A stretch of DNA of 51,380 nt, taken from assembly GCA_030141605.1 (NCBI GenBank), contig JAQGDQ010001261.1:1-51380 (forward strand). Reading direction: 5' to 3'. Shown here one piece after another: positions 1,180-43,965 of this stretch; the first letter of the stretch is position 1; the number at the start of each line of letters is the position of its first letter. This DNA is from Tubiluchus corallicola. Taxonomy: Eukaryota > Animalia > Priapulida. The notes under the pieces are model-generated. The model saw nothing but the letters and a program-made list of their open reading frames with translations. It had not been told where the DNA came from and ran no database searches. Both the position numbers and the translations under genes were made by a program.

Positions 1180-4100
1180 GTTACGAGAGCAAATGGTTGA
1201 AGAGATTTATAAACTTGCTACGGAGTTTAGAGTGGTTACCTTCCAACACTTGTCCCAAACCATCGAGAGAGCAATACTGGAAAACATTGCTCTACACAAT
1301 CAGCTGAGTAAGTTTCTTTATTAAATTTTCTGCTGTCTTGTGTTTAGATGATAACATTAACCTCATATATTTTCGTTTGGATGATTTCAAAGTGAAGTTG
1401 AACGCAAGTGTTTTAGGTACTTTTATTTTCTGACTAAAAGCGACTAATGTTCACTAATAATGTCAGTGTTAGGTAGATGTGCAATTAGAACGTCAGAGTT
1501 TCACTCATAATGTCAATGTTAGGTAGATGTGCAAATAGAACATCAGAGTTTCACTAATAATGTCAATGTTAGGTAGATGTGCATTTAGAACATCGAAGTT
1601 TCACTAATAATGTCAATGTTAGGTAGATGTACAATTAGAACATCAGAGTTTTGCTAATAATGTCAATGTTAGGTAGATGTGCAATTAGAACATCAGAGTT
1701 TCACTAATAATGTCAATGTTAGGTAGAGGTGCATTTCGAACATCAGAATTTCACTAATAATGTCAATGTTAGGTAGATGTACAATTAGAACATCAGAGTT
1801 TCACTAATAATGTCAATGTTAGGTACATGTGCAATTAGAACATCAGAGCATCACTAATAATATCAATGTTAGGTAGATGTGCATTTAGAACATCAGAGTT
1901 TTACTAATAATGTCATTGTTAGGTAGATGTGCATTTAGAACATCAGAGCTTCACTAATAATATCAATGTTAGGTAGATGTGCAATTAGAACATCAGAGTG
2001 TCACTAATAATATCAATGTTAGGTAGATGTACAATTAGAACATCAGCGTTTCGCTAATAATGTCAATGTTAGGTAGATGTGCAATTAGAACATCAGAGTT
2101 TCACTAATAATGTCAATGTTAGGTTGAGGTGCATTTAGAACATCAGAATGTCACTAATAATGTCAATGTTAGGTAGATGTGCAATTAGAACATCAGAGTT
2201 TCACTAATAATGTCAATGTTAGGTAGATGTGCAATTAGAACATCAGAGCGTCACTAATAATATCAATGTTAGGTAGAAGTGCATTTAGAACATCAGAGTT
2301 TCACTAATAATGTCATTGTTAGGTAGATGTGCATTTAGAACATCAGAGTTTCACTAATAATATCAATGTTAGGTAGATGTGCAATTAGAACACCAGAGCG
2401 TCACTAATAATATCAATGTTAGGTAGATGTACAATTACAACATCAGAGTTTCACTAATAATGTCATTGTTAGGTAGATGTGCATTTAGAACATCAGAGCT
2501 TCACTAATAATATCAATGTTAGGTAGATGTGCATTTAGAACATCAGAGTTTCACTAATAATGTCAATGTTAGGTAGATGTGCAATTAGAACATCAGAGTT
2601 TCACTAATAATGTCAATGTTAGGTAGATGTGCATTTAGAACATCAGAGCTTCACTAATAATGTCATTGTTAGGTAGAGGTGCATTTAGAACATCAGAGCT
2701 TCACCAATAATGTCAATGTTAGGTGAGGTGCATTTAGAACATCAGAGCTTCACTAATAATGTCAATGTTAGACGGATATGCAATTAGAACATCGGAGGGT
2801 TCTTCAGTTGAACATAGTATATTTCGCACAGTGCGTTATATTATAATTTACCAAGCTGTGTGTTTAGCGACTAGTTAAGCATCATTGAGCCTGGTCAGTA
2901 AATGTTGGCCAGGAAAATTGCTTTTGCGTATTATAACCTGAGCTGCTGCCCCAAATATTTGCCTGTTGAGGAAAAGATGAATGTGGGAAGGAAACTTCTG
3001 CTGGTTCAACTTGGAAGATTGGCCTTGAGAAGGAGCTACCTAGGTTCCATTCCTGCCACAAGCATCTACATTAAGTAAGCCTTGACTGAGTGTTTGATCT
3101 TAGTTTGCAGTGCAGGGCACTGAACCAAATTAAAAAATGTTAAAGATAATATTTTTCTGTAATTTTTCTGAAATTTTGAACAAATATTGCCTGTAATCCT
3201 AAAACCTTATAGTACACAAGTTAGCTATTTGTGCTTCATTTTTTTATTTTAGAGAATCCACTAAAGCACAAAAACATGTTAACGCAGCTCTAGGTTAATT
3301 TTTTCAAAGTATAAAAGCGTTTAATTTGAAAATGAAACGCATGACTTGGAATTTTATTTATGATCAATCAATTACTAGTCCATCATCAGTCCACTATCAG
3401 TTATAATTGATAATTTGTTCTTCCAGATTTTGTGTCAGAAACTGCGGAAGACTTACTTCGACAGAAAGACGACCTGAAAGAAAAGCAGAAAGAACATTTG
3501 AATCTTGTAGAAATTCTTGAGTCAAACGAACAAAATCTGACAACTAAAAACATGAGTCACACTAAGGTGCACAATGCTTTATTTTGTTAAAAATTCTCAT
3601 TATTTTGAAATTGATAGTGCATTGATGTATTGGTGCATCGTCATATCTTTTATTATGGTTTGTGTATCGTGTAAATGCACTCGTGTTGTGATAATCTGAG
3701 TCAACGATATTTTACCTAGCTAACATGCGCTTGACCGTATGCCGATAAAAACCATTTTAAGTCATTCAAGTTGTAGCTGTGGAGTGTACTGTAGATACCT
3801 CTCAATCAGCGCAGTGAGCCGTAGTTGACTTCACAGCCTTAGCTAGCAGCCAAAGTGGTTGAAAACACAAGGTGCTTAATCTGTAGTAGGTTAATTACAT
3901 TGTCTGCATATTAATTTGTGAATTATGGCAAACGTGAATCAGAAAATGCTCAAAACAATTTTTAAACCTAAGGTATTGACATGTTTTGCTTTTCTGGTGG
4001 CTTAGAATGCAAACAATGGCCTACATATTACTCAAGTAATAAATAAAAATCCAGCTTGTCCAGTTATCCTAAAAGTGTTGATTGATAAATATGTTTAGCA

Positions 4101-7100
4101 TTTATAGTCAACAGCTTCATCTGGTTTTTTATGATGCCTGCAAACATTAACTTACGCGTGTTTTGATGCATTTCGTGTCGTGAGGTTAGTATCGTGATAT
4201 GTATCGTATCGTGATTTAAGTATACAGGTAAGAGATGTTCCACTGTGTCCTAAGTAGCTGTGAGTTCAATTCTGTAACAGATGAAGCATATATAAAGACA
4301 TATGTGTAAATTGGAAAGAACATTTGTTCGTTGTTTTAGGTTATAAGCATTCTAGTAGAAAAGAACAAGGAACAGAAACGTGATATTGATCACTTGCTGA
4401 GAAAGGACAGCGAATTTGACAAGGTATTTAGCGAGAATTTTACACTGAAGAGCAAATTGTCCATCGCAAAAACTGAACGGGATGCCTTGGAGGAATGCAT
4501 TACTCGTGGTAAAATGAAAGAACTTCAGGATTCACTTCAAATAGCCATGAAAGAAAGAGATGAAATTGAGAAAATTTTGTTGTCTGCAGCTCATACTGTA
4601 AGAGATGCCGTGATGAATGAGGTAATTCTACTAAATTAATTCTACTTAATTAAAGATGCTCTTGGTCAGTACATTTAATAGGTGTTGACGCACATTTTTA
4701 TGCTTAGTAACATGTCTTTTCGCACACATGCCTCTATACAGTAATTACCGTTGATTGCTTAAGCAATCTGTGAGAACCTACATGAATCTGTGTGAAAGGT
4801 GCTGCTGATAATTTCTGGAGCTGTGAAAATTATGTGAAATTATCTGGAATTCTTTTAAGTTGTAATTGCCATAATTTTTTGTCCTGTAAGACTGGTTGAA
4901 GCCAATACACAATACGCAGCATGCTATCATGGTCTGCAGCATGGAATGATGTCTGATGATGCATAAAATTGCTGCTCTTTGTCTGGTGTAGCATTGTGTC
5001 TTGTTATTTGCTGTTCTATGAAATTTACATGGTATTGTATGCCGATGATGTCATGCGCAATGTTTCATGTTACCACTTGTTCCTTTGGTAAAGGAAAGAA
5101 CAAGTCAACCAGTATGTTGGGTTTATGTTACTGTTATCGCTTAAACTTAGGGAAATATAACAAAGAAATTTGCAAAAAAACGTTTATAAAGCATAAATTT
5201 AAAATATACCACCGCTGAATAGAAATTTTCAGGCATGATGGTTGTCGCCATTCACTTGAAAACTATGACGTAACTGGGAGACTTCGCGACTCTCCGAGAA
5301 GCACGTCGTGGCTTTCCGTAAGCACATGCTGCTTAAATTAATTCAAACTTCTACGGCTTACCTAATGTTCACGCCACGCGAAAATATTACAAAATCAGTC
5401 ATCTATTATTTTTGGTAAAAATTTATTATACTTTTGACGAAGATTAACAGTGCGCTACTTTTCTTCAGACGAATGACGTCTTTGGAAGAAGAATGAGCAT
5501 TGAAAATGGCAGCGTCCAAACATGAAATGATCGTGACTTTACTAATTACGCCGGGCACTTATCACATTTTTATTACTAAATCCTTCTGACATTTTTCGCG
5601 AACATTGAAATAAGCCGAACTTCCCAGAAGACTTGGACTTTCCTTTAGCCTTTCATGCCGCCACAGTTACTTGCAGTAGCTGTGGGAAATTCATGTATTG
5701 TCTCATGATGCACATTTTACTGATCAAGTCATTATGTAGTATCTTTATTAGCTACTTTTTAAAGCCAGGTTTTCAGTGTTACTAGCATACAGTTGCCATA
5801 GTGCAAGTAACAATGCCATAGATATGGTTTGTGTAGATCAAAGATCTCGGTGATTGCTTTGGCATGTTCTGCATTCTAGACTGTCTTGCGGCGCTATTAC
5901 ACTTTCGCACCGCCTAGCTTTTTATAGGTTATTACTCGTAAGTCATCATTCTATTATTCTTACGTCATCAGTGAATGTTTCCGCTAATCTAATTGTAATT
6001 TAATAATATATTTAGGTATAATTACCAATAATTACGCTGTATTCACAGTTCTACGCCTATACAGGGCGTATCGCCATCTTGTTTGTGTGTGTAGTCACGT
6101 GACAAATTTCGTACTAGTTTATGCATTATCAGGGCCTAGCTTAAAAGGCACGTGACACACTTTCATCTTCACCGCATTTACGAAATAAAGAAAAAACCTT
6201 TACTTTTTTTATAATCTAATAGTAATAATACTACAGTAATAAATAAAATTAATGATAAATAACTGTAGTGGTCCAAAATAATTTCCTGCGGTACGATACA
6301 AACTTCCGTAGCTGCAACCCTAATAATCATAAATTATGCGAAGAAACCAAAAATACAGGTTAAGGGCCACATACGTCATTGCGCGAGAGCGATTGCGCAT
6401 CAGTGATGTAAACACGGTTATTCACGTGCAGCTTTTAATGGCGGCTGTAGGTAAGTAATGCATGATTTTAATCTGGACTTATAAAGCGCAAGAAGCAATA
6501 ATATTATGGGAATATGGTGTATATTACTCCTGTTGGTCTGCTTTCTGGCCTGCAGGCGTGAAAACAACCAATAGGCCAGGAAAAGCTAGGCGGTGCGAAA
6601 GTGTAATAGCGCCCTGTCTTGCTGTTCTGATCTTCTTTGTTTAAGTTCCTAATTCATTTAATAAATACTACTTCATTATGCACGCATTCGTCTGGTTGCT
6701 AATATTATTGTAGCGTGTAACAGTGCACTGTTTGCATGCTACTGATTCTTGAACACATAGATTCATCAAACCTGCTTGAGATATCTGTTTTGTTATTATT
6801 TATGTTGTTGTCATCAAACTGCATTACATGTCTATTGTATGATGTAGGAAAGGCGACACGATTCCGAGGCTTCTATTGCGATGCTTCACGATGTATTTCG
6901 AATCTTAAATGATGCCGCTTGTGCATGTATTGGCTCAAGTGCTGCCACGGTACCAAAGTAAATGTTTGTTCAATTTGTGTATTTTTCCTAGGCCTTTTGA
7001 AACTAATAAGAGGTCACATTCCTGCTTCTCTTTTATTCTAAAGACTAATGAACATACTAAACTTATTAGCAAATCTGTAAACCAAAACTGTCCATAAGTC

Positions 7101-10100
7101 GGCATGGTTAAATCTACGTTATGATGTTTCAAAATTGAATGCACCTGGGGCGTATCAAGACACCCTAGGCTGATAGATCTGTCCCACCCATCTGTTTTGT
7201 GAATTGATTATATTGAGCTGAACAATTAAACAATTACTTGTGCTGTATATGATTAATCTAGTTTGTATATAGTACTTGTTAATTGCGTGTATATGAATCG
7301 CCTCTTATATATGAGCAGAATGGGCAACTGTTTGTTGTGTAGTACCTTGTACTCATTCATTATGTGGTACTTATATAGCAGCTAGTCTAAGTAACTGCTT
7401 GTGGTGTGTTATGAACGGATACACAATTTCCGAGGACAATAAGAATTTTTTTAAATTGAGCCCCTAAAATGTGGCGTCCCTCAAACTTTGGCACCCTAGG
7501 CTACAGCCTAGTTAGCCTGTTGGTTAATGTGCCCCAGAATGCGCCAAAAATTTTGACAATTGTCAATTTTTTGTTTTTTGAAAACAAATGCTAATAATGT
7601 CCGTCTTTATATTCTAGCGTCAAATTAGCTAGAAAATGTTCAAAAAATACTAATTCTATAACTTACCCACTTTCCTGGTTAGAAATTGGTATTGCAATTG
7701 TAAAAAAACTCCTATTTTTAAACTCTGGTAGTAGCTCGTGGAAGCAGTCATTTTGCTTTGGGTTTTTTCTGTTGCCAAGCCCAGATCTTCATCAGGAAGA
7801 CCCATCTACTGGTTTTAAATATGACTTCAGTCCGTTCTTTCAAATTCCGTAGCAGTTACTAAGTGTTTTGTGGAAACGCGACAAAAACAATGGCAAACTT
7901 TAACAGAGATTTTCTCAAGGTTATGTTTTTCAGTTCGCAGCGTGCACCGCAACTTCAACGTGGATTATCTCAGCTTAGAAATAACATAGAGCAATGAGCT
8001 TCTTATCAAAATGATCCTCATAAAATAGAGATTCAGGATATGTGAATAACTAAAAAAGTTTAATAGCCGACTTATGGACGATTTGGCTATGCAAGTACAC
8101 AAATTAATAAGTGAATAATATTAAATTTGTTTGTAGTGGAAATTATGTAACGATTTAATTGTTTCACAACAGAAAAGAACTTATTGCAGGCATGGTGTAA
8201 TTTTATAAGAACTCTAAAATTTGTACGAACTTTGTCAAGTTGTTTTGGATTACTTTCACCTATTTACCCATTTTAATATCTGGACGGAATTCACTTGAAA
8301 TTAATAAATAATTTTGCTAAGGTGATAAAAACTAGTTTTTAAATTGCTTTGATGAACGCATGTCAGCTTCTTTTCCCGCTGTGAGTGTCTTTCAAATAGT
8401 TTACTTTAGTTATCATCATTCAACATTAAATGTTTTAGGTTGTCATCTCATGAAAAACAAGCCGCTGTTTCCTCATACAGTTTTACACCCGAGATTTCAA
8501 TTACGACAAGCTGCGAAAGAACTACTGATGCCGAGAGCTCAGAATTTTTTATAGACGAAAGTACAGGAATGGAAAACTTGTTACCTCAAAAACCAAGTGA
8601 CGAATCAGATAGCAAACAAAGGGTAATTAAGTCTATAGTATGTGTGCATGATTAGGACATGATACTGTTACAATTGGAAGAAAGTAAATTCTTGTATAAT
8701 GATCAGTGGCGGCTCGCAGTTAAAATTAGTGGGGGCGCTGCTTCAGAAAATTTTTAGCCATTGCTTTAATACTGTGTAAAATGTAACAAACGAAACATAA
8801 TTTTAATGTTGTATTTTGTAATTGTAATTTTTAACAAACAAGCTTGCACAAATTCATACATAAACTTGATAAAATCTTAAACAAAAAAGATTTTGACTTG
8901 TAAATAGCCCAAATTGTCACAATTCAAGAATATGCTGGTACATGGTTTTTAAGCACGTGATAACTGACAACAAAAAGTGTGAGCGACAGTACTTTCTCTA
9001 CCTAGCAGCAGATGCTAGCAGTGCAACGTACAGCGTGTTATCTCAGACATATGCGCATGACCACATGCGCACAACAGCCAAACACCACTGTGCTGGGCTG
9101 TGAAGCAAATTGTACTACCCTCATGTGCTCTGGTTCCGTACAAATATAAAGAAAGAACTAAAGAAAAAAGACTTATTACATTGACTATTATCGATAATAT
9201 CGAGTGAAAATAGGGGGCGTTGCAGTCCCACAGTACCTATACATGAGCCCTCACTGATAATGACTCCATGTTCGATCTAGTGACTGTAATATTTTTTCTT
9301 AGTGACTAAAATTTCCAGTAAGCTTCAATGCCAATTTTTGGCATTCTTCCAACCATTAAAACACCGTTTACCAAGTCGGTTATGATAGGAGGAATACCCA
9401 AAAAGTAATTAAACAATTTCCCAGAAACTTTCTGGTTTGAGCATGGGATAAAAAGAAGCCAATAAATTTTGGTGTTGATCTGAAACACCCTAGAAAAACG
9501 GGAAATAAAATCCATTATGTTCGGACTTTTTGTAAAACTTCAAGATGGTCTTGGAGGAAGCTCTATTATATGCCACATTTTTTCACTCGGACACTTGTTT
9601 ATTTCCGTTTTTAAACAGTACTCAAATACACATGTTAAAAACTACTTAGTTGCTCAAACCTGTTCTAGATTATTAACCCTACAGAACCGCACTGCTAACT
9701 GACTATATTTAGTGGCTGAAACAGATGTGCTATGGCTGCAAGACATTTTTGTCATAAATCCAGTAGCTTTAACTAATTGTCTTACTTGTCCACAAAACTT
9801 GAAAGTTATCAGATTGCTTATACGCACAACACTTTTAGCCATTACGTAATTTGACGTGGCACTTTTGCCTTATATAAACTGAGTGAAGGAAAGACGAAGT
9901 TGTGCTGTAATTAGCAACACAAATATGCTTGGCTTATCAGCATTAGAATCATCGTAGGCTGTTGTGTTTTGTTTCCCTCGGATGGCTGGTAGAGAAAACC
10001 AGAAAACACGTTGTCAAATTGAACAGGTTTATTGTGTAAGAATTCTACAACACACAAGTATGAAGGAACGCGAAATATACACAGTCAAGTGATAAGAAAG

Positions 10101-11073
10101 TAGCATGCGATAATCTGAGAATACGAGAATATGAGAACAAACTTGAGCGGCCAACTCCGCCTTATGTATCAGTCCACATGAACAATCACCAGAACAATCT
10201 AGAAACAACTACGCGTATCACGTATAGAAAGTTCTAGATGCTTCTGCAAGGTAAGAAGATTGGCTCTACTATACTATAGAACATTCTAGTGGATCTCCAC
10301 AACATAGGCCCACTTCATGATTCTGCAAACCGAGTACGCGTACGAAATATTTTTTATTTTGCCTGGGATGAAATCAAGGGACAAACTCGTCAATGTGCCC
10401 TAAAAGTACTCAAAGTGCATATACCTGAAATCAAATAATTTACTGGTGATGGAAAAGTTCTTGGACAAAGTGCAGTTTCTCTGGACTCAGCCATTCTTTT
10501 TTTACAGCAAGGTGTATAGTGAAGTGGTCATGTTTATATTATGCTTTCCTGCATATACTTGCATAAGTTCTCACTTGTTTTAACTTGCCACCCTGATTCT
10601 GGTTTTTTACTTCTTTGAGGGCGGATGTACTACATCCAAATGCGTCGAAGCCACTTCTGCCAAGTCAATGCCTCCCCCTCAGAGGGATATCTGTGGTAAT
10701 AAACTAGGTGCCGATTCTGCCACGTACGATAATTTTGAGATGCTGCCATTGAATGCTGCATTCTTGTTTACAAATTGCACAGACAACCCTTATAGATACA
10801 GATATATAGGTTAATGGAGTATCTTCTAATGATGATTTGCCAGCTTGTCAGTAGATGGCATTATGTGAGCAAAACACAAACCAAAAGTAATTACAGTGTA
10901 TAAGTTGATGCAAAATGCTTATCATTTTCATTTCCTTTCAGGTGATTTTTAGTATGGCTCAGAAAAAGCCCACGGAAATGGAAAAACATGATTTTCCGAG
11001 CGTAGCTGTAGTGAAAGAACTAAAAACAGACAACAAGTTAGAACTGGTGCAATCAGTAACAAAGAAAACTTGA
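1180..11073 (+). CDS. CFAP157: CFAP157-like cilia/flagella coiled-coil protein, 3' part (exons 1180-1307, 3427-3566, 4340-4621, 6848-6957, 8439-8622, 10942-11073; 5' exons not seen, probably left of window)
   Basis: GT-AG exons join in matching phases (1,0,0,2,0) into one open frame: RLREQMVEEIYKLATEFRVVTFQHLSQTIERAILENIALHNQL-NFVSETAEDLLRQKDDLKEKQ...NMSHTK-VISILVEKNKEQ..., ending at TGA 11071-11073. This resembles the CFAP157 segment RLRKEIIQRVNLVANEF...TTKRAIKEN...QKIILML as I recall it. The last two exons are less certain. Confidence 0.75.
1451..2800. repeat. Intronic minisatellite, ~27 copies of a 50-bp unit
   Basis: Consensus TCACTAATAATGTCAATGTTAGGTAGATGTGCAATTAGAACATCAGAGTT repeats head-to-tail with few substitutions and one 1-bp deletion near 2725. 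Confidence 0.97.
5149..5644. mobile_element. Non-autonomous DNA element (Kolobok-like), related to 1-187
   Basis: Shares its 3' region with 50-187; termini roughly AGGG...CCT with TTA-type flanks. Left boundary approximate. Confidence 0.4.
5890..6613. mobile_element. Young MITE with perfect 33-bp TIRs and 9-bp TSD (MULE/Merlin-like)
   Basis: TIR GGCGCTATTACACTTTCGCACCGCCTAGCTTTT (5890-5922) is the exact reverse complement of 6581-6613. TSD CTGTCTTGC at 5881-5889 and 6614-6622. Confidence 0.9.
7075..8105. mobile_element. Non-autonomous DNA element of the same family as 37465-38133, interrupted by the MITE at 7145-7537
   Basis: Colinear similarity to 37480-38130 (aaccaaaactgtcc...tagctcgtggaa...gtggaaacgcgacaaaaacaa...gattttctcaaggttatg...atgcaag.acac) on both sides of the nested insertion. 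Confidence 0.75.
7145..7537. mobile_element. hAT-like MITE (family B), nested insertion
   Basis: Termini CTGGGGC...GCCCCAG, approximate TSD aatgcac/aatgcgc, colinear with 15357-15774. Confidence 0.75.
8704..9256. mobile_element. hAT MITE (family A)
   Basis: TIR CAGTGGCGGCTC...GAGCCCTCACTG; 8-bp TSD ataatgat/ataatgac; colinear with 22789-23397. Confidence 0.85.
9960..10304 (-). mobile_element. Solo LTR (345 bp; 5-bp TSD, BEL/Pao- or Copia-like)
   Basis: Termini TGTTGTG...CACAACA, perfect TSD TAGGC (9955-9959 and 10305-10309), AATAAA on the minus strand near 10028-10033. Confidence 0.8.
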
Positions 11074-11706
11074 TATTTTTTAACTCTTGTTCATTCTTTA
11101 CTATGTATTTTATTATTGCATTTTAAATACAAGTTGGATAAGTATCAATACACGTATTAATGAGTTAAAAAATACGGAATATCTATGCTGGTGACATCGA
11201 CGCAGTGGAACTTGGACATAAGGCAACTTTTGAATATGAACTACTGTCAACAAAATAATTTCCGAAGCTGGATTAAATGCAAATTGCGTTGTTTGAAGAT
11301 TAACTGTGGCCTCTCGGCCATAAACGCGCTTCTTACTGACGTGCTACAGTGGGCACAGAAGCTGTTTTCACAATGTTAGCTATTTTCTATTGGGTTAAGA
11401 TATTATGAAAGTGTCTTATCTCTGTGATTTGTGTAGCCTGTACGTGTATATAGGTCATTAATGTTAAGCAATCCATGGCTTCCAATAGATGGAACTGGAA
11501 TGTTATAACAGATTTGGTGTGAGAGTTTATATGCATCTTCAGTGTTCTTTATTCTTGCAAATAACAATCAATGATGACTTACACTTGTATCTATTTTTGT
11601 CTGATGTCTATTGAACCATCCGATCACCACAATTTTTCTTAGTTGATTAGCTTTTCAGTTTTTTCTTACGTGTAGTTCAGCATTGGATGGCCACTCTACT
11701 AAAGTA

Positions 11707-13964: not shown

Positions 13965-14492
13965 ATGAGTGTTTTTAAGTGCCTGTAATAAAAGTTGACT
14001 AATATATTTTTTTATTTTTACTGAAACGTGTTAAATTTCAAGCATGTATTTGCCGAAGCATATTGACTTCCTGCTTGCTGGGCTGATAGTGAAGTCTGAT
14101 CTTTGCCAGTGGCATCCATTCCATGTTCAATTAAAACACGTACACACAAGAGTGTTCAGGGTTTACTGAGTTACTATCTTCTCAGCTCATGAGACAGAAA
14201 CAAATTTTTTTGTGGCTGGCCTGAGAAAGTAAGGATTCCTGGAAAAAAGATAAATATCTCGGTATCAGAGCAATCGTACAAAGATGGAAAATTTTAGCAC
14301 TGTTTGCTTATTCAGATCTCACAACAGCTTTTAAAAACAAAAATGTTTCTGTTCAAACTGAAGTTTGAACTTTTCTAACACTGCTGCGCTATGGATAATA
14401 TAAAAAACTGCTTCTATGATTTATGACTATGATGATTTTCTTCTAGAAAGAGTGCAACATCTATGTAGTTTCGGATTTAGTAATCGCACGAC

Positions 14493-17400
14493 ATGCCAGA
14501 TGTAACACATCATGTAACTTGTATTTGCATAATCTGCGGGACTCTGCTGTGTCTGAGTATGTGCTCAGAAAGACCAGCAGCTGTGACAAATAGGTATGAT
14601 CCCAGAATACTGACTGGCGCTGGGGCGTCGTTTCCAAATAAAGTGTATCAGACGTGGATGAAGCTTTATGAAGCAAAGAGAGAAAAGTGGCTGTACTTGG
14701 CTATGAAATACTTGGCGGTAGGAAGTGGTTTAGGAAAAAACTTGATCAAGAACAACCTCACCTTTATTGATTATGCAGGTAGTGATAGTCTGCTTACGGA
14801 TAGCGATTATGAAGAATACCCAGATTTGCAAATGTTTCCAAGTGTGATTGGGTAAGCACTTTCAATAAATTTAACTATTAGTTTTTTTATTTCATTAACT
14901 AATTATGACTGTGATTGCCTGAATTTTTTACAAACCATTGCGGTTTATTTTACCAATTATTTCCCATTGTGTGTAATGAGTTGGAGAAAGAAAACACTGG
15001 AAAATTGTGGACTAAATTTGAATCCGAGACCTGAGATTAGTACCTCCGCGCTCTACCACCTAAGCAACCAGCCCAGTGTGACAGAGCATGTCTAAGATTT
15101 CCTCCTTGCAGCTCACAATCCAACAGCGCCACCTGTACCCGTGACAGAAGGGGGATAACCTGGGAAAGTATTGATACCAACTTTCATCCGTGATCCGTAG
15201 TTTCGTCACTATAATACAAGTCGTAGTTACTGTGTAATGCTCCCAAAAATATTAACCCTGTTTTGTTACGTTTGGATAAATTTCCATCATTTTGATATTT
15301 TCACATTATCGGCACCATCATCCTCATTGTCGTTACACATCGTATAACACTGCCATCAGAGGCTAATCAAGACTTTACGACGCCCTAGGCTGATAGTTTC
15401 TGTCCTACCTATCTCTATTATGAATTTAATGTTGTTTAAGTAATGAGCAAATTAAACAATACTTGTGGTGTATTAGAAACATTAGTATTATACTTGTGGT
15501 ATATTGTTAACCTAGTTTCTAGTTGTTATCATAAATAACATGTATTTTTGCATAACGCTATATATGCAGGCTGCACAAATGCTTGTTGTCTATTTTTTTG
15601 CACCTGTTCGTTATGTGGCACTTAAAAGCTGTGCGCAGTAACTGCCTGTGGTGTGTTATAAAATGTGCCCTTTACATGAATATGAAAGTGTACCACATTT
15701 TCCACGGACATTAAGAACATTTTTCTAAAATGTGATGCCCTAGCCTAGTTAGCTTATTGGTTAATATGCCTCTGACTGTCATTATCATCAATATAATCTT
15801 TTGTAACTTGTAACAGTGGCACAGTAATCTGTTTGTAACACACTCAACTTGCATTTTTAAATCAGCAGACACAATCATAAGCATAATCCATTTTGAAGGT
15901 CTTACCACATTCTTGCTTTAATATCACAATTGTGGACTGTTTTTTACACATCGTTATTTTTATTGATTATACATGTGTTTCTGATTAGCTCCGATTTTTT
16001 TGTTTAGTGCCATTGATAAACATCCGGTATTGCCAGTTAGGCTTACTGTCCTGGATTTAGTAGGGGGGGGGGGTACTAAACCATGTGACACGGCCACCTT
16101 CTCTCTTTGCTGTTTCAGGAATGTATTGCCTCATTGCCATAAGCGCAGATTTTGCTTGCATACAGGTCTAATGATCTAACAACTTACGTCGTCACACACG
16201 TATTTACCCAGTTTTCGTAGTTTAATGCAAAGGAGTAAAGAGTTAGGTACGAATGATTACTTGCATACATTTGAAACTTGTTTGCAGGGCTGTTCAAATG
16301 GTTTTCAATCTGGGTACAAGCATTACAGCTCTGAATTTGACTCGCAACGGGTTGGTTGGCATATACAATGGTACAATCAAGAGTTGGGACCATCCTATAC
16401 TGCAAAATGCGAATCCCCAAGTAAAGTTGCCTACGGCAGTAATTAAGGTGTGCTTATGCATAATTTAAATTAGTAAGCTAATGTAGTGTTTGGTAATGAG
16501 TGAGTTTGAACTTGGATATCTGTGTGGAGTGCTGAAGAAAAGATTTCAGAATACAAGACATTGTGGATGTGTAGAGTGGGTGTGCATGTAAGTCGTTAGA
16601 AAGACAGTGGTTTAAACATAATTTATTGAAGATGTAACATATGCTAGGTTGAAACAGACAGTTTTACAACTGATATATGTTCTCATATATCTATATATGT
16701 TCTCCTTCTCTTGGTAAGATATTGTTTGTAGACAACGTATGAAACTAATCTGGCTCAGTAGCTGCAGTAAACATAATTAAAATCAGCGTGAAAATATTAA
16801 ATCTGTCTGTTCTAGGTAGTTGTTAGAAAAGACAAATCAGGAACAACAGAGATTTTCACTAGCGCTTTGAGCGCCTTCAGTCCGGAATGGAATAACGCAT
16901 ATGGAACTTTCAGTGCTGGTGTAAATGGAGACGGATCGATGATGTGGCCGGATTATACTGTTACATACACAGGAAAAAAAAGCATCGGAGTCACAGGACT
17001 AGTCTTATCTATTGAGGGTACTATAGCCTATGTCTCTCAAGCTGACGCTGTTGAGGTATCAGTCTTCTTGCCATAAAATGTAACCATAAACAACTCCTCT
17101 AGCTCAAAAATGCACATCTTGCTAGGCGAAATACAGTAAACTGTCTATAAATCGAACACCTCTGGACAGGAAAATTTGTTCGAGTTATGCAAAAGTTCGA
17201 CATACACTAGTAACACTACAGACTGTGAAAGGGATAAACTGAGCCTAGCGACAATTTTTAGGAATAATCAAAAAATAAGATGACTGGTCCACTTCTATTG
17301 TTGTCGGAGTAGCATGTTTAATAGAATTTGGCAATAATAAAATCATGTTCGTTAAACCATGCTGTGCGCAGCAGTCTGCTAAGGTAATACAAGAAATTTA

Positions 17401-20400
17401 GCATTTGTGCTGAAACTAACAGTTAAAATCGTAATTTGGTTTCATAGGATTTCTTGCTTGGGAGGTTGTTCGAGATAGGTAAGGTAATTTCTTAAGAACT
17501 GTACCGGGAATTTGGTGCGTGTTACGTGATAATCCGATCCAAGTTACAGATTTTGAGTTGCATGGTGTTTGTTAAAGAGAGGAATGAAAGGGATAATTCA
17601 TTCCATGATATCTGTTTGAAATATACAAGAATACGAGCTTTACCAGTTCCAGTTATACGTAGTTTACTGTATGTCACGATTGTGCTGCTGAACATAACTA
17701 TTAAAGCAGTAAAAGAAGCAGCTGTCTGCTTGGGCTTTTCCAATGTTAACTGACATTTGGCAACTGTTGAAGGCCAGGCCTGATTATCGTGTAGGTTAGT
17801 ATAGTTTGCAGCTTGTGGCTCCTCAAGCTTTGGGGGGCCAAGCTTGAGGAACCTGCTAAAGGATCTTAAATGCATTTTTTTTTAAGAATGAGTACTGTTT
17901 TAATATTTTGTATTGCCAAATAATTTATTTAAGTTAAAATAAAATTTCAATTTTAAAAAAGGTGGCCTGGGAATCTAAAAACCCAATTTCTGTTTGTGGT
18001 TCCTTATTTGAGATAAAGGTCCTCTGTTTGAGGCCTTTTATTTGAGATAAAGATCCTCTGTTTGAGGCCTTTTATTTGCGATAAAGGGCCTTTGTTTGAG
18101 GCCTTTTATTTGCGATAAAGGGCCTTTGTTTGAGGCCTTATATTTGAGATAAAGGTCCTCTGTTTGAGGCTTTTATTTGAGATAAAGGGCCCTTGTTTGA
18201 GGCCTTTTATTTGAGATAAAGGGCCTTTGTTGGAGCCCTTTTATTTGAGATAAAGGCTTTTGTTTGAGGCCCTTTCTTTGAAATAAGGGGCCAACGTTTA
18301 AAGCCCTTTATTTCAGATGAGGTGCCCCACTTTTGGGCCCTGGCTATAAATTATGAGGCCCCAATCCATGTTTGTTAGAGAATGGTTCTATCTGAGGGTC
18401 CCCATAATTTGATTAGCCTAGGGCCCCCAAAAGGTCATAAGGTCATTTCTGGCCCCCACAGATGGCGAGGGATAACTTGTGTGTGGTAACTCAGTGTGCA
18501 TCTCTGATGTCAAACTCATGGAAGAATGGGCCAGCAAGGCTGGGACAGTTCACTGTGGTACCACCATTTAGCAGCACTGTCTAAAATCTGTAAAGGGAGC
18601 TCCTTAGGAGAAAGGAAAACTTGGTGCAAGGCACCATGGGTCATCAGGACAAAAACTATAAAATAATGATGAATTCCCTTTTGCCTGACAGGTCATTGGT
18701 ATGACATTGATAGTTTTCTGCTGAGTTGCCTTGGGCCTTTGTCTATTATCATCCTTACACGAGTAAAGCTTGGTGGACACTACGTGGAGTGTACGTGTAC
18801 AGGGCCGGATTAAGATGTGTTGGTGGCCTGAGCACACCCAGCACCTGGCTCTCTCTTTCTCCCTTTGTAATCGTGTGCATGTTTCACGGTTCAAAACATG
18901 TGTACTATGTGATACGAAATATGCAACATTATATATAAAATGAGCTTCTTCGCTTTGCATAGAATTTATGCCACTTAAATTCTTTATTGACTTCAAAATG
19001 AAATTTCAGTTAAACAAATCCGCTACCCAAAAAGTGTGATGCTTGACAACAGCAAAATTGGTCATTTTCAGCACTAGAGGTCACTAGTTACAAAAATTGG
19101 TCATTTTCAGCACTAGAGGCAACCAGTTACAAAAAATTGGTCATTTTCAGCACTAGAGGCCACCAGTTACAAAAAATTGGTCATTTTCAGCACTAGAGGC
19201 CACTAGTTATTGGAATGACTTAACTAAGGAAAACAGTAAGGACAACTTAATAGCCTAACACTAAATAATGTAAAGATATCAGCAACGGTTTTCAATAACA
19301 CAATGGTTAATACTGTTGTCTACTTCATTTAATTTTTATCTGCTATAATTTTTTTGCCAGCTTGGTGCCCACTGAGCCTTGATGCCCTAATCACTTCCTT
19401 AGTCTCCCTATACGTTAATCTGACCCTACACGTGTATAAATGATTGTAATAATGATGTCAATGTTAGCTAAACTATGCGCAAAATGTTTTTGTGGGATGT
19501 TTGTAATAATTTTTTATTAATTTCCTAGAGTCATGTTCGAATAGCTTCAGTTGAGTCAAGAACAGGCAGAATGGTGTATCCGACTACAGAATCTGTGCAA
19601 CAAGCTGCATTAGATTTTAAAGATGCTTTCACAGGGAGATTTACAGCTAAAATTGTAGATCCACCAAGCAGTTATGCTTATCCTATCAGCGGTAAGATTA
19701 ATTGTGATAATAAATCACTTTGAGCAAGGTAAAAATCACGTCAAATGATCACGGTCTGCGCTATGCGGCTGAGTTAAGTCACTTCGAGGCTGGTCAGTGT
19801 GTTATGATATATGTGGGTTCAATACTATAGCTCTGTACGTTTCACTCTGATTCTGCAAGTTTTTCTCATTGGGGAAAGTTGTACATGCAGATGCTGTCCT
19901 GCAGGGTGTAATGTAACAATTTGCTACTCAGCAACATAAACAACTGAGTAACATAAGAAAACAATTTATTACATCAAAGTGCTGCTCAAACTTTAACACA
20001 TCTGCCATACTCTCACAATTTCACATAGAAGTCTCATATGTCTCACACGGCCAGGGCCTATTTCAGCCTAGGCGAGGCCCGGGGAAGTAGGGCGCGTGTG
20101 GCCCGATCGGGGGGGGGGGGCCGAAGCGCCGCGGGGCGGGCGCTACCATGGTTGGCGCCCAGAAAATTTTTGAACTGCTAGAACGCCGGAGAAGCATTTT
20201 CGAAGAGAAAATATGAAGTTATACAGTTGTTAAAGGAAAGAACAATTGAAAGAAAAACTGCTTTATTCTCAAGACCAGTCCTTAATACTTGTCAATACTG
20301 GCAAACGGCATGTGTGCAGCAAGAGAGAGAGAGGGAGAGAGGAAGCAGTATGTTCGCATAAAGCAAAAAAAAGTTACCTTGGTGCGAGGCCCCCCTAGAG

Positions 20401-21242
20401 GGTGAGGCCCCGGGGAGGTAGCCCCACTTCCCCCCTTGAAATACCCCCTGCACACGGCCAGCAGTCTTGAGGGTATGATTGGAGCAGCAAAGTATTCAAC
20501 ACTTTTGGTTAACACTGATCAATGGCATGTTTTCTCTAACCGTCATAGTGGCTAGTTTGCATTTTAGTATAGCCTGAATGTGTTTGGTAAAGTTGTGGTC
20601 AGGAGAATTTCCAATACATTCAGTTCAAAAAATTAATCTCATAGTTTGCAGATCGCTGCTCTGATCATAGTGTTCAAGACTATAGGCTGTGCGAGATGCA
20701 GTACAGCCTTAGAGCCATACAGCCATAGGGCAACCATAAAGCCGTGACTTTTGGAGGCATGATGGAAACTTTATTGTTTCAGCAGTGCTTTTTTTATGCA
20801 CCACCATGTATACCTGAATGGTTATGATGCCTGTATCAGTGGCTTCTATTAGGAGGTTATCTTTGAGAGCGACCCAGGTTCCTGGCTTCCACAAACGTCA
20901 GTGTTTGTAGGTCCTGTTTTGAGTCCTGGTTCGAGTTTGCAGTGTGTACAGTTGTATATACAACTGAGTGGTATGCCTATTTGCTTTTCTAAACTATTTG
21001 GTCATTTAGTTACAGCCTAACTTTGGTCTCAATTTTCAAACTCAAACCCAGTTCTTTGGGCAAAATTCTGCAAATATCCACATAATGTGTACAGTAATTT
21101 TTGGCATTTAAAATTAAAATACACGATTAGACACTATGATTATCTTGGATTTTAAGTATCAGTGCATTGGATCTAGTTTGGGATCTGTGCAATTACATTT
21201 GATGAATGAAAATAGAGAGGAGGTGAGTGAGAGAGAGTGAGT

Positions 21243-21305
<63 letters not shown>

Positions 21306-21882
21306 GCAGAGAGAGAGAGAGAGAGAGGGGGAATGAGAGAAAGAAGAGACAGATAAACAAAGGTCCAAAATTGAATTGTATTAATATAGTAGCAGCCCAA
21401 GACTGCTTAATTTTTCACTACGTAAATAACTATGTGGAAGCAGTGATGTAACAATAGGCAAGTTCAACATTTACTTTATCACAGGTTACACCTACATCAT
21501 AATCCGCATGGAAACTATGCATGACTGCAATGCTGCAAAAGAGCTGATCAGATACTGTGATTGGTTCTTGCGTGATACCTCAGCTAGAAGAACAGCAAAT
21601 CGGTTTGGACTTGTGCCGGTGGGAAGCGAGATCGCCAGCATGGTTGTTACCAATGTATTGAGCAAGGTGAAGTGCCGTGGGACAAACATTTGGGAAGCCG
21701 TGAAAGATGAGAAGGCATGGGAGAAAAAGTATGAACAAAAGTGGAGGCTTCCCGTGTTTATATTAATTCCAATTGTTGCCTTGGTTTTGTTGATTCTCTT
21801 CTTTCATTGTGCAAGCAACTCGCTAAAGGCAAAACGAGTCAAGAAATTGCAGGAGCAAACCAGGCGACGTAACACAATATAG
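14493..21882 (+). CDS. Membrane-anchored PstS-type phosphate-binding protein, ~439 aa (exons 14493-14851, 16288-16447, 16816-17055, 19529-19691, 21485-21882)
   Basis: Five GT-AG exons join in phase (2,0,0,1) to 1320 nt. Motifs GAGASFP, VGSG.G, DYAGSD, FPSVIG|AV, GIYNGTIKSWD, NP.VKLP, VVRKDKSGTT, GTIAYV and AYPISGYTYIII are colinear with bacterial PstS. Hydrophobic N-terminal signal; TM LPVFILIPIVALVLLILFF; stop TAG at 21880-21882. Confidence 0.92.
14995..15170 (-). mobile_element. tRNA-derived repeat fragment (SINE-like or tRNA-containing TRIM-like)
   Basis: Minus strand reads GGGCTGGTTGCTTAGGTGGTAGAGCG (A-box-like) ... GGATTCAAAT (B-box-like), preceded by ...GTACA-GG-TGGCGCTGT (PBS-like). 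No intact cloverleaf. Confidence 0.5.
15357..15774. mobile_element. hAT-like MITE (family B)
   Basis: CAGAGGC...GCCTCTG termini; 8-bp TSD actgccat/actgtcat; colinear with 7145-7537. Confidence 0.85.
17134..17669. mobile_element. pogo/Tigger-like MITE (second family)
   Basis: TA|CAGTAAACT...AGTTTACTG|TA with subterminal TTCGA repeats. Confidence 0.75.
18004..18335. repeat. Minisatellite, ~10 copies of a 34-bp unit, probably inside a decayed hAT-like MITE (~17775-18455)
   Basis: TTATTTGAGATAAAGGGCCTTTGTTTGAGGCCTT recurs with GATAAAG at 18012, 18046, 18080, 18114, 18148, 18181, 18215 and 18249. Flanks carry GGGGGCC and GCCTAGGGCCCCC motifs. Confidence 0.85.
18800..19428. mobile_element. hAT MITE with an internal ~40-bp tandem repeat (4 copies, ~19054-19210)
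   Basis: CAGGGCCGGATTAA...TTAATCTGACCCTA termini; 8-bp TSD tacgtgta/cacgtgta; internal unit AAAATTGGTCATTTTCAGCACTAGAGG.CAC.AGTTAC. Confidence 0.85.
20052..20450. mobile_element. GC-rich hAT MITE, recent insertion
   Basis: CAGGG..TATTTCA...TGAAATA..CCCTG termini; perfect 8-bp TSD CACACGGC; CpG-rich interior. Confidence 0.88.
21225..21350. repeat. (GA)n microsatellite
   Basis: Long, imperfect GA run in the last intron of the PstS-like gene. Confidence 0.95.
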
Positions 21883-22000: not shown

Positions 22001-22006
22001 AATAAA
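22001..22006 (+). terminator. Candidate polyadenylation signal of the PstS-like gene
   Basis: AATAAA ~120 nt after the TAG stop. Confidence 0.5.
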
Positions 22007-24051: not shown

Positions 24052-27033
24052 CTATCGAATACTATTTTCGTGAGCGATCTTAACATTTTCACATGATGGC
24101 TTCATGTGAATATTAAAATGAGTTTTTAAAGTACTTAGTCGTGCAAAATTTGCTCCACATTGGTCACACATGTAGGGTCTTTCCCCTGTGTGAATTCTCA
24201 AATGTTTTTTTAAACAACCTGACCGTATAAAAGCAGCATCACAATAGGTACATAAAAAAGGCTTCTCTTTTGTATGAATCCTATAATGAGATTTTAGATG
24301 GCCGGAGACGGAAAAAGCTGCCTGGCATTCACTGCATTTAAATGGCTTTTCACCTGTATGTGTACGATTGTGCTGCTTTAAAGAACTTGACTGCGCAAAC
24401 GCAGCATTACACTGAGTGCATTTATAAGGCTTTTCTCCAGTGTGAATTCTCTTATGCTTCTTCAAACCAGTTGAATCCAGAAAAGCAGCTTTGCATGTCT
24501 CACACTTATAAGGCTTTTCTCCTGTATGAGTCCTTAGATGACACTTGAAGCTAGTTGGATATGTAAATGTGGCAGAACACAGAGAGCACTTAAATGGCTT
24601 TTCTGCCAAGTGACTTCTAAGATGGCATTTTAGATTACTTGATGAAGCAAAAACAGCTCCACACTGAGAACACTGAAAAGGTTTTTCGCCTGTGTGAGTT
24701 CTGATATGACGCTTTAGCTGAGACGAAGACCCAAAAAATTTCCCACACTCATCGCATTTCAATGATTTTCTGAGATTGTGAGTCTTGACATGTGCTTTTA
24801 ACTTGTGCTTATGTGTAAAAGGCAGCTCACATTGAGGACATTTGTAGTTTTGCACATCAGGTTCTGAACGGTATCCAGAACAAGCACTTTGCTGGTTTTT
24901 TGTACAAATGTAAGATTTTGAATTCAGTTCATTCTGATTAAAGGCACTATCCGCGGAACTACTTGGCACTGTTGGTACTAACGGGTCATCACTTAGTTTA
25001 CAAATAAGTTCATCTGTATTTGTTCTTTCAGTGCCACTGTTAATGACCATTGCTGATGCGGAAGAGCTTTCTACATGAATCTTAAGATGACTCTTAAGAG
25101 TACCTGATCGGCCAAAACCGGCTTCGCATAGGTGACATTTAAAAGGCAGCTCCCTTGTGTGAATTTTTTCGTGCGCCTTTAAATGACTAGAGTGAGAAAA
25201 AGCTGCCTCACAACCGCTGCACTTATATGGTTTTTCTCCAGTATGAATTCTTACGTGGGTTTTTAATGCAGTGAGTACAGGAAAAGTAGCCTTGCATTCC
25301 TCACACTTATATGGTTTTTCACCTGTGTGGGTTTTAAGGTGATACTTGAAAGAGCTTGCCCATGAAAAAGCTGCATTGCATTCACTACACTTAAAGGGTT
25401 TTTCTCCAGTGTGAGTCCTAATATGATCTTTCAAATTGTTTGCTAAGGCAAAAGCAGCTTTACACTCACCGCATTTAAAAGGTTTTTCTCCAGTATGGAT
25501 TCGATAGTGGCGTTCAAAAATTGACAAACACTTGAAGGTCTTCTGGCATTCACTGCATTTAAATGGGTCTTTCCTCCGAGTATTTACTTTTAAATTTACT
25601 TTCGAAGGACGCTTTTTGGTAAATGACAAGTCACACTTGCTGCTGCTAAGCTGGTCTCCTTTCTTAGACACAGTTAACTGATCACTGCCGGTTGAAATAA
25701 GCAGACTATCCCGAAAATGTGGGCTAGAATTCTCTAGTGTGAGCTTGCTCTTATAAACAGGTAGTTCGACAGTTTGGCTCTCAATTACACCAGGTGTTGT
25801 TTCTATTTTTGGCTCAGTCTTAATAACTATTCCATTAACATCATCTTGAGTGCTTGTTCCCTTGCATATCCCAGGTATTACTTCAATGCTCGGTTCAGTC
25901 TTAATAACTGTTTCTTTACTTTTATCAACTAGCAAAAGTGTTTTGTCATGAAGCTTAAGGTGTTTTTTCAATGCAACAAGCCGAGAAAAAGCGGCCGTAC
26001 ATTGAGTGCAGTGAAACACGTCATTTGAATGTGTCTGATAATGAGACTTCAAATGACCTGAATGAATAAAAGCAGCTTGACATTTATCACACTTAAATGG
26101 TTTCACACCTGTGTGCATTAGTATATGACGTTTTGCATCACTTGATTGAGAAAAAGCAGCATCGCACTGAGTACATTTATAAGGCCGCTCTCCAGTGTGA
26201 ATTCTTAAGTGTATTTTCAGTTTAGTTGAATCAACAAAAGCAGCTGCGCATTCTCCGCACTTAAAAGGTTTAATTCCAGCATGTACTCTGAGATGATGTT
26301 TTAACGAACTTGACCATGTAAAAGCAGCACCACATTTGTCACATCTAAAAGGCTTGTCTCCTGTGTGAAGTCTTTGATGCTCTCTTAGATTGTTGGATGA
26401 AGCAAAAACTGATTCGCACTCAGTACATTTGAAGGGTTTTTCTCCTGTGTGAGTTCTGAAATGACCTTTTAGAGTCGATGCATATCTAAACACCTTATTA
26501 CATTCAATACATTGAAATGGTTTCTTTACTGAGTGCGTTCTTAAATGTGCCTTCAACTTGTGATAATCGCTAAATGGCAATTCACAATGATGGCTCTCGC
26601 CACTGAGATCTGTAAAAGTCATATCATTGCAACTGGCTGCATTCAACTGATTCTCATCAAACTTCATCTTAGGATTCATAAGAGCAACTTGACCGTCACA
26701 GCTAAGACTGGAAGACAGAATAAATGTGGATAATGACATGTCAGATTTTATTAAATTTTGATCATCTGCTGGTTCTGTAGACTTGCTGGCAGAAACATTA
26801 GTATAATGCGCATCATCATCTGACGAATCATGTGCATCTAATTGTCCTTGTCTGCTTCCTTCAGTTTCATGATTCAATAAACCCTTGTATTCACTTTTTA
26901 AAGCAGGCTCAATGTTAGCTGTCTTTTCGTCTGTTACACTTTCCACAAATTTGCGCAGTTTATCTAAAGCACAGTCTGTAGTGTCCAGGAATGACAAAGA
27001 TTTGTGATTGCGGGGGTTGCCAGTTTCCTCCAT
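24052..27033 (-). CDS. C2H2 zinc-finger protein, ~993 aa, 22 fingers plus 1 degenerate finger in three clusters
   Basis: Uninterrupted ORF with CxxC...HxxxH fingers and TGEKP linkers. First ATG at 27033 (MEETGN). Splice acceptor at 27089-27090; the frame is open up to it, so an upstream coding exon is possible. Confidence 0.95.
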   Translation of the reverse strand: MEETGNPRNHKSLSFLDTTDCALDKLRKFVESVTDEKTANIEPALKSEYKGLLNHETEGSRQGQLDAHDSSDDDAHYTNVSASKSTEPADDQNLIKSDMSLSTFILSSSLSCDGQVALMNPKMKFDENQLNAASCNDMTFTDLSGESHHCELPFSDYHKLKAHLRTHSVKKPFQCIECNKVFRYASTLKGHFRTHTGEKPFKCTECESVFASSNNLREHQRLHTGDKPFRCDKCGAAFTWSSSLKHHLRVHAGIKPFKCGECAAAFVDSTKLKIHLRIHTGERPYKCTQCDAAFSQSSDAKRHILMHTGVKPFKCDKCQAAFIHSGHLKSHYQTHSNDVFHCTQCTAAFSRLVALKKHLKLHDKTLLLVDKSKETVIKTEPSIEVIPGICKGTSTQDDVNGIVIKTEPKIETTPGVIESQTVELPVYKSKLTLENSSPHFRDSLLISTGSDQLTVSKKGDQLSSSKCDLSFTKKRPSKVNLKVNTRRKDPFKCSECQKTFKCLSIFERHYRIHTGEKPFKCGECKAAFALANNLKDHIRTHTGEKPFKCSECNAAFSWASSFKYHLKTHTGEKPYKCEECKATFPVLTALKTHVRIHTGEKPYKCSGCEAAFSHSSHLKAHEKIHTRELPFKCHLCEAGFGRSGTLKSHLKIHVESSSASAMVINSGTERTNTDELICKLSDDPLVPTVPSSSADSAFNQNELNSKSYICTKNQQSACSGYRSEPDVQNYKCPQCELPFTHKHKLKAHVKTHNLRKSLKCDECGKFFGSSSQLKRHIRTHTGEKPFQCSQCGAVFASSSNLKCHLRSHLAEKPFKCSLCSATFTYPTSFKCHLRTHTGEKPYKCETCKAAFLDSTGLKKHKRIHTGEKPYKCTQCNAAFAQSSSLKQHNRTHTGEKPFKCSECQAAFSVSGHLKSHYRIHTKEKPFLCTYCDAAFIRSGCLKKHLRIHTGERPYMCDQCGANFARLSTLKTHFNIHMKPSCENVKIAHENSIR

Positions 27034-27530
27034 TATAATAATCCACGTAATATTACCAGTGATGTAATAATACAGCAATGAATTAGGCCTGCAACAAAAA
27101 AATCAAATCAGTAATAAAATATCATATACAAAAGAAACCACAACTGTATAAGCTTTCAGGCATTAAAAGACTTTTATGAATCTAGGTTCTCAATTGAAAT
27201 GATCAACTTCACCAGAATTTTTACACCGTAGATACAAATCTTGATTCGTTAACACTGTGATCACTGAACTGATACAAATACAGTTGAAATTTTTATTACA
27301 GGATGTGAGCAAAAAACCAGGTTTTGCAATTATTCCCTCTTATTTTGTTATAACACAAATAAATGCTGTTCTAACTGCCTCTTTTGAGATTACATGCACA
27401 AAGCAAAATGCAGTGCCACCTAGTTGCAGTAGAAAGGAAGAATGGTGAACTATGAACTAGAAAAAAAATCACATAATACAGTTTATATTAACCCTTGGCG
27501 TGTGGCATGTGCACGTGTGGAGTGTGCACG

Positions 27531-34671: not shown

Positions 34672-35542
34672 TAATTGTATTAGAATTACGTAAAATAAAT
34701 CACACTTTACTTAGTGGCATAACATACAAAAAATGAGTATTCAGAAAAACAAGATTTATTTTGTTATAAAATCATTCTCTTACAAAAAGCAACAAGCTCC
34801 ACTTCTAAACGCCAGTTAGAAAACCAAAATACAACAAGAAGCTGATTTAAATTCGATAACCGTCTCAGCTCCAACTTGATTTTGTATAGAATAAAACAAG
34901 ACACCAACTATCATCAAAGTACACAAACTAATTAACAAAACTAACAATTAACTACATGTTAACTACAATAATAAATTCAAGAATTTGTAAAAATGGACAT
35001 TTCAAAATAACAACACTGAAATAATGCAAATAAAATTGTAGATATGTTTTATTGGTAGTTTTAATTACAGTACAGTCAATTCTAGTTTGTTTGCATATAA
35101 AATTCATTGGTTTACATTAGATTCATATAGTTGAATTCAGTGTTAAAACTTCTGTTTTCTGATAGCAGCCATTTCTGTTGGTATCACATAACTTTTCAAC
35201 TTAAAAATTAAAATGTTCATAGAATCAAAAATATTTGTAGACTTAAAATATAAGTACTCAACTTCTATTAACTTTTGTTTACCTATAGCCTGTTATGATT
35301 TGGTAGGCATACTTCTAACATGAAGAAAATTGCTTTCCTGATGTAGGAGATTGCAGCACATATGAGAAACTGTTTAACTTTAAGGCTTTATAAATTATAG
35401 CCTTAAACTCTATAAGTTGTAGATCTTGGGGCTGTAATTTTTAAAGTTATAGAGTTTAGGGCTTCAATTTTTAAAGAGCCAATGCTATGAGGGTCATATT
35501 ATTAACATTTTTTTTTACAGATAGTCATTCCCTGTGAGTAAA

Positions 35543-43946: not shown

Positions 43947-43947
43947 C

Positions 43948-43965
43948 TGGTGTCAGAAGTGGGAT
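43948..43965 (+). promoter_or_regulatory. Primer-binding site, tRNA-Leu
   Basis: TGGTGTCAGAAGTGGGAT, 1 nt after the LTR, complementary to the 3' end of tRNA-Leu. Confidence 0.9.

Follow-up and report, generated by a model that had tools for sequence, protein, structure and literature searches.

A truncated PstS-ectodomain receptor guanylyl cyclase gene of Tubiluchus corallicola: a candidate silent subunit of a putative phosphate receptor

Contig JAQGDQ010001261.1 of the priapulid Tubiluchus corallicola (assembly GCA_030141605.1), analysed over its full 51,380 nt and here called the window, carries on its forward strand a five-exon gene for a predicted cell-surface protein whose outer domain is of the type of the bacterial phosphate-binding protein PstS. 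Judged by its sequence, the protein belongs, in truncated form, to a family of receptor guanylyl cyclases with PstS ectodomains, and the cyclase-less gene structure, which is what is new here, is very probably genuine. The five exons (Table 1) are predicted to join via four GT..AG introns of 1436, 368, 2473 and 1793 nt into a single frame of 439 amino acids, which confirms at the sequence level the gene model of the initial annotation. M1 is the first methionine, fixed by in-frame stops immediately 5' of the ATG; an alternative donor of exon 3 at 17062, 6 nt downstream, would add two residues (441 amino acids). The hydropathy profile shows one strong segment (residues 396–414) and a weaker one (residues 4–22), and the last 22 residues hold 8 Lys/Arg and 1 acidic residue. 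The stalk, single membrane helix and short basic tail proposed earlier were recovered in outline.

The gene is a genuine animal gene. Bacterial contamination was considered and rejected, as the initial annotation had also held, because of the introns, the animal neighbour genes and a separate DNA set that contains the same locus. Contigs of this set cross the intron-exon borders and cover the intron 4/exon 5 junction without differences. Sequencing run X1 behaves as DNA, and the matches in run X2 are short repeats only, so that neither run speaks for or against expression. Of the miniature inverted-repeat transposable elements (MITEs) said to fill the introns, one element with terminal inverted repeats was found, together with high-copy repeats.

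Table 1. Features of the PstS-type gene (positions in the window)
Feature	Position	Strand	Basis
Possible acceptor of an untranslated upstream exon; pyrimidine-rich AG, 46 nt 5' of the ATG	14429..14446	+	sequence; inferred
Coding exon 1, aa 1–120; likely signal peptide, start of PstS domain, contacts S46, F47, S78, D98	14493..14851	+	
Coding exon 2, aa 120–173; PstS domain, sequons N136, N147	16288..16447	+	
Coding exon 3, aa 174–253; contacts R177, D179, S181, G182, T183	16816..17055	+	
MITE-like element within intron 3, with terminal inverted repeats of 30 nt that are 80% complementary	17128..17675	.	repeat analysis
Coding exon 4, aa 254–308; PstS domain	19529..19691	+	
Coding exon 5, aa 308–439 and stop; end of PstS domain with C322/C371 pair, stalk, membrane helix, tail	21485..21882	+	
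Helical stalk, aa 374–395; family-specific, lacking in bacterial PstS	21682..21747	+	comparison with relatives
Transmembrane segment, aa 396–414	21748..21804	+	Kyte-Doolittle 3.18; continuous helix in single-sequence model of exon 5
Cytoplasmic tail, basic, with the TAG stop	21805..21882	+	sequence
AATAAA, candidate polyadenylation signal about 120 nt past the stop; consensus match only	22001..22006	+	

The PstS-type domain is complete, as had been claimed. In a profile search per exon, exons 1–4 match TIGR00975 (PstS) with E values of 2.6e-9, 4.3e-10, 1.2e-10 and 8.6e-6, and the matches are collinear on the profile (positions 1–77, 79–131, 133–197 and 204–255). Scored singly, the exons reach 25–41 bits each, the cut-off being 205 bits; five animal relatives score 197–213 bits, two of them above the cut-off. 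Exon 5 matches the profile of the animal family with E = 5e-37. In an alignment to E. coli PstS all nine positions of a D-type phosphate site are kept, namely S46, F47, S78, D98, R177, D179, S181, G182 and T183, which correspond in this order to Thr10, Phe11, Ser38, Asp56, Arg135, Asp137, Ser139, Gly140 and Thr141 in the E. coli numbering. Eight of the nine residues are the same as in E. coli, and the Thr10 position is Ser, as in Synechocystis PstS1. For the latter protein an eight-residue list of phosphate contacts with Ser in first place is given in passages of PMC13614923, where the Asp of PstS is also tied to discrimination against sulfate and arsenate.

The site is well kept in the relatives too. 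Of the named animal relatives compared, 22 in number, 19 have Asp at the Asp56 position, 2 have Glu and 1 has a gap there; the residues at Arg135 and Asp137 are conserved in 22/22. Although its end branch measures 0.74 substitutions/site, the Tubiluchus protein matches the family at 61 of the 66 ectodomain positions that are highly conserved, which argues that it is under constraint. Its ectodomain is likely to bind phosphate. A structural model of an abalone relative (38% identity to the Tubiluchus protein) shows the PstS domain, stalk and membrane helix with a mean predicted local distance difference test score (pLDDT) of 92.9, and in Foldseek it matches 1quk with E = 4e-33 and a root-mean-square deviation (rmsd) of 2.0 Å. 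Superposition on PstS structures, at about 2 Å, thus holds for this relative. Identity with DING proteins or the human phosphate-binding protein (2v3q, 4f1v) was rejected, the TM-score being about 0.66 and the rmsd about 5 Å as against 0.93 and 2 Å for PstS. A homodimer prediction with the ectodomain and helix of the abalone relative scored 0.03, which speaks neither for nor against a dimer, and a search of the ESM Atlas with exon 5 gave weak matches only (0.83 or less).

An HMMER search with exon 1 yielded 287 clusters at E <=0.001, 150 of which are listed; a word-indexed search with the same exon found 0 of 1429 candidates. The top full-length matches to the joined protein comprise six proteins of molluscs or annelids, with P0036 (40%, E = 2e-103) and P0009 (39%) in front. 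These matches align through the stalk and four of the five cyclases also through the membrane helix; five of the top six carry PBP_like_2, kinase-homology and Guanylate_cyc domains. The five cyclases, from Haliotis, Owenia, Mercenaria and Argopecten, are automatically named 'ANP receptor-like' or similar; across the family the automatic names include 'speract receptor' and 'retinal GC-like', and for abalone names such as 'phosphate-binding protein PstS-like' are in use. A search with the Owenia ectodomain adds proteins of Gigantopelta, Ylistrum, Lineus, Patella, Liolophura, Paralvinella and bivalves, so that chiton, limpet, snail, nemertean and vent-worm members are included. All named animal homologues found are spiralian.

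Intron 1 is found in relatives too. Among the matches listed, 57 of 113 fragments shorter than 240 amino acids lose the match at exactly residue 120, and at the metagenome locus L084 the acceptor of intron 1 lies at the same codon and phase as in Tubiluchus. This locus (L084:1631-5400) encodes a PstS-ectodomain receptor guanylyl cyclase with canonical cyclase motifs; past intron 1 a single exon of 2.2 kb begins in the PstS domain, takes in the helix and the kinase region and reaches the cyclase. Introns 2–4 of the Tubiluchus gene are absent there, and the helix runs into the kinase domain without an intron. Because the closest relatives are receptor guanylyl cyclases with a PstS ectodomain and with stalk and intron 1 in common, the free-standing domesticated PstS of the initial annotation had to be given up. 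With respect to six residues that we take to be the catalytic set, 4 of 21 cyclase-bearing members keep all, 15 keep at most two and 2 are cut short; the family therefore tolerates loss of catalysis. In the full-text literature, with subscription journals mostly and supplements outside coverage, no account of animal proteins with a PstS domain, or of cyclases with a PstS ectodomain, was found.

In the Tubiluchus gene the stop is reached 25 codons past the membrane helix, where the kinase-homology domain of the relatives begins. The Trp that opens this region is kept in 20/20 relatives reaching that point and is Gln432 here. Five full-length cyclase queries gave no significant match to kinase or cyclase coding sequence elsewhere in the window, and a cytoplasmic-domain profile found nothing among 2316 six-frame window segments (best E 0.43). 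Candidate GT donors after the helix all score −2.1 or less, the four real donors −0.1 to 3.9. The same stop codon is present in the separate DNA set, one contig of which spans it with 12 differences (7 listed, none of the listed ones at the stop). On all these grounds the truncation looks fixed. Another observation from this set is that in one contig two amino-acid-changing and three silent differences are clustered in the stalk.

Other short members are found in abalone (436 and 444 amino acids), Nucella (498) and Aplysia (545), and in all of these the Trp is present and the sequence continues in the direction of the kinase region. They were rejected as independent cyclase-less orthologues since they look like cut gene models, and no independent case of the cyclase-less form is therefore at hand. 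The two abalone entries, P0153 and P0296, come from two species and stand beside P0009, a receptor of 975 amino acids from H. asinina; either the annotation is split or there was a separate truncation.

Three trees of PstS domains were calculated: a quick one with 92 domains, a bootstrap tree with 60 and a mixture-model tree with 64. For the 60-domain tree 32 of the 92 rows were dropped (long branches, odd composition, near-duplicates, unnamed fragments). In all three the Tubiluchus protein lies inside the animal clade (support 98 with 92 domains, 100/99 with 60 and 99 with 64), which nests with Chromosphaera, Calcarisporiella, Palpitomonas, Mucochytrium and green algae. Indeed, the named eukaryotic PstS domains sampled, whether animal, protist or fungal, form one clade in the bootstrap tree (100/99). 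This clade lies among or beside Anaerolineae-type PstS of Chloroflexota (L002-L049, L085-L117), the nearest prokaryotic relatives sampled, with which nearly all eukaryotic rows have the Cys pair in common. Two rows of other label fall within it: P0134, a metagenome protein labelled bacterial and among those dropped, in the 92-domain tree, and L132, a very long-branch prokaryote-like row, in the mixture-model tree. Selection of the bacterial rows went by likeness to the animal sequences, and named archaea were left out; seven rows that are possibly archaeal branched far from the eukaryote clade.

In approximately unbiased (AU) tests, a grouping of the animals with the eight nearest Anaerolineae-like bacterial rows was rejected (p 0.006, for a group picked after the tree was seen) and a clade of the animals with Chromosphaera was not (p 0.19); a grouping of the Tubiluchus protein with catalytically intact members gave p 0.09. 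A scan of prokaryote genomes with an animal protein confirmed 0/20 stretches, and among viral contigs the count was 0/33. Horizontal acquisition by animals, as first proposed, is not supported in view of the single eukaryotic clade and the rejected grouping, which together suggest that the bacterial origin is older than the animals or that the domain has spread between eukaryotes. These trees would be better explained by a single ancient gain from bacteria, after which the domain was inherited or passed between eukaryotes, than by transfer into animals.

Two further observations concern the wider family. The protein P0042 (807 amino acids, 64-kb contig) combines a pair of PstS domains with a membrane helix and the beginning of a kinase-like region; since it falls outside the animal clade, the layout PstS-helix-kinase may predate animals. 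In P0001, P0057, P0098, P0132, P0145 and P0289, from protists, a fungus and other contigs, PstS is fused to TRP-like, Kelch, phosphodiesterase, 7tm_3 and PARP/WWE domains. Fusions of PBP_like_2 and 7tm_3 from Plasmodiophora brassicae are described as putative transporters in a section of PMC4815078.

How, then, might a receptor cyclase without cyclase function? Receptor cyclases act as dimers, and NPR-C, which has no cyclase, heterodimerises with NPR-A or NPR-B and suppresses cyclic GMP (cGMP), as passages of PMC10334801 state. Since the ligand domain, the stalk and the helix have been kept and the enzyme lost, we favour, with a probability of roughly 0.4, the reading by analogy that the Tubiluchus protein belongs, as a silent subunit like NPR-C, to a receptor-cyclase system that senses phosphate. 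The gene would derive from an ancestral receptor-cyclase gene that lost its 3' part. Its product would be displayed on the cell surface, where the ectodomain would bind extracellular phosphate with closure of its lobes, and would pair with full-length receptors via the retained stalk and membrane helix, damping or tuning the cGMP output of the partner; it would modulate the signal, not generate it. The affinity of bacterial PstS for phosphate lies in the micromolar region, and if such an affinity has been kept, the system would more likely read the phosphate of seawater or gut than that of the body fluid. More doubtful is the wider proposal of a spiralian extracellular phosphate receptor system composed of PstS-ectodomain cyclases that are active (Owenia, Lineus, Paralvinella), pseudo-cyclases and silent NPR-C-like members, the last setting the cGMP gain.

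It should be noted, however, that several points weigh against the silent subunit. The cyclase-less form rests on one gene. The mechanism needs a full-length partner in the same genome, of which the 51-kb window is the part covered; this window ends 29.5 kb past the stop, and more distant exons are formally conceivable. The structural model is that of the abalone relative, standing in at 38% identity for the spliced protein. And with an end branch of 0.74–0.94 substitutions/site the protein is fast-evolving, its place within the animal clade not being settled by the trees.

Among the other explanations, a stand-alone surface phosphate sensor without cyclase partner, signalling via the basic tail or another membrane protein, is unlikely. 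An intact and constrained phosphate site would be expected of it as well; most of the relatives' cyclases are degenerate and yet the site is kept, so that the family may signal independently of cGMP, and eukaryotes have fused the PstS domain to many outputs (7tm_3, phosphodiesterase, PARP, TRP-like). The tail of about 25 residues, however, shows no motif beyond the positive charge that any type I helix has, and it is common to no relative. Readings of the tail as a PDZ or G-protein-activator motif are not convincing.

Quite improbable is a phosphate scavenger or buffer that passes phosphate to SLC20/SLC34 or internalises it. The site is of the high-affinity type on a predicted surface protein, and NPR-C, too, clears its ligand by endocytosis (stated in a part of PMC10334801), but the family context is signalling, and a stoichiometric binder without an energised transporter cannot, by reasoning, concentrate phosphate. 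Bacterial PstS serves a PstC/PstA/PstB transporter whose genes are adjacent, whereas here two PstC-type queries gave no tblastn match in the window (PstA and PstB were not searched) and the neighbours are zinc-finger genes. Of the claim that the protein may sense or concentrate phosphate, sensing therefore stays plausible on sequence grounds and concentrating has become weaker.

An equally small chance is given to a duplicate that was truncated and is now decaying, or that has exchanged phosphate for another ligand. It would account for the long end branch and for the amino-acid-changing and silent differences in the stalk; against this, the frame is open across five exons, and the conserved positions (61/66), the nine site positions and the Cys pair are retained. 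The gene is real and probably functional.

Least probable of all is that the model comprises just the 5' part of a full-length receptor cyclase, the remaining exons lying beyond the window or missing from the assembly: most full-length animal relatives do have kinase and cyclase domains and one weak GT is present at 21869, 5' of the stop, but an intron of more than 29 kb holding several genes, one of them on the same strand, would be required (the others are 0.4–2.5 kb), the conserved Trp upstream of this GT is already lost, an AATAAA follows the stop, and L084 has no intron at the corresponding point.

The neighbourhood is as follows. Upstream lies a multi-exon coiled-coil-like gene (3429-11078, +), for which the name CFAP157 was not confirmed, the two exons scanned giving 0 Pfam matches. 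The zinc-finger neighbours were confirmed as two long single-ORF (open reading frame) C2H2 genes at 24052-27102 (−) and 35525-37441 (+), of 1016 and 638 amino acids, respectively, counted from stop to stop. A histidine N-acetyltransferase-like gene follows at 38666-40450 (−; Pfam Hisat_C, E = 8e-18). The end of the window, 43445-51380, is taken up by a Ty3/Gypsy-type long terminal repeat (LTR) retrotransposon whose terminal repeats, starting near 43445 and near 50887, are almost identical, its gag, reverse transcriptase, RNase H and integrase being spread over several separate ORFs. Tandem arrays with units of 50, 34 and 40 nt occupy 1450-2797, 18004-18318 and 19054-19209, respectively.

The mechanism by which mice sense phosphate is called undefined in a passage of PMC6001877, where the PiT transporters are candidates, and the PstS of a paper on a deep-sea mussel is, in the part concerned, that of the symbiont (PMC13401447). 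The PstS-cyclase family is of interest as a receptor of conventional, ligand-binding type whose ligand can be predicted and whose site mutants are defined, and its catalytically intact members would add a direct cGMP read-out; these intact relatives are better first test objects than the Tubiluchus protein, which suggests that the family has evolved a silent member as the natriuretic peptide receptors did. Many mollusc database entries named 'ANP receptor-like' have a phosphate-type rather than a peptide-type ectodomain. As the named animal relatives found are all spiralians, any relevance to vertebrates is conjectural.

Of the systems with which the Tubiluchus protein can be compared, DING proteins have a phosphate-binding fold and are reported from eukaryotic samples; they differ in being soluble. 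The PBP_like_2 and 7tm_3 fusions of Plasmodiophora brassicae and Calcarisporiella are likewise eukaryotic membrane proteins with a PstS-like outer domain, and the fungal one from Calcarisporiella falls in the same eukaryote-wide clade, but their chassis is that of a seven-helix class C G-protein-coupled receptor. Bacterial PstS of the D-type (E. coli 1ixh/1quk/2abh; TIGR00975; PF12849) is like it in the collinear domain match, 30% identity and the nine site positions. The Tubiluchus gene, in contrast, is a spliced animal gene and adds N-glycan sequons, stalk, membrane helix and tail; the C322/C371 pair is present in its product and in Chloroflexota (Anaerolineae) PstS and absent from E. coli PstS. 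The PstS-ectodomain cyclases of molluscs, annelids and nemerteans (e.g., Owenia CAH1793096.1, Haliotis XP_067652446.1) belong to the same clade (100/99) with 30–42% identity and have stalk, membrane helix, Cys pair and intron 1, whereas the Tubiluchus protein lacks the kinase-homology and cyclase domains, has a remodelled tail, and its gene has three further introns that L084 lacks. The ectodomain of NPR-C (NPR3) is of the ANF_receptor type and binds peptides. Like NPR-C, the Tubiluchus protein combines an ectodomain, one membrane helix and a short tail without cyclase with an ancestry among receptor cyclases; unlike it, and this makes the likeness one of analogy only, its outer domain is of the PstS type, suited to a small anion, and gives no ANF_receptor match.

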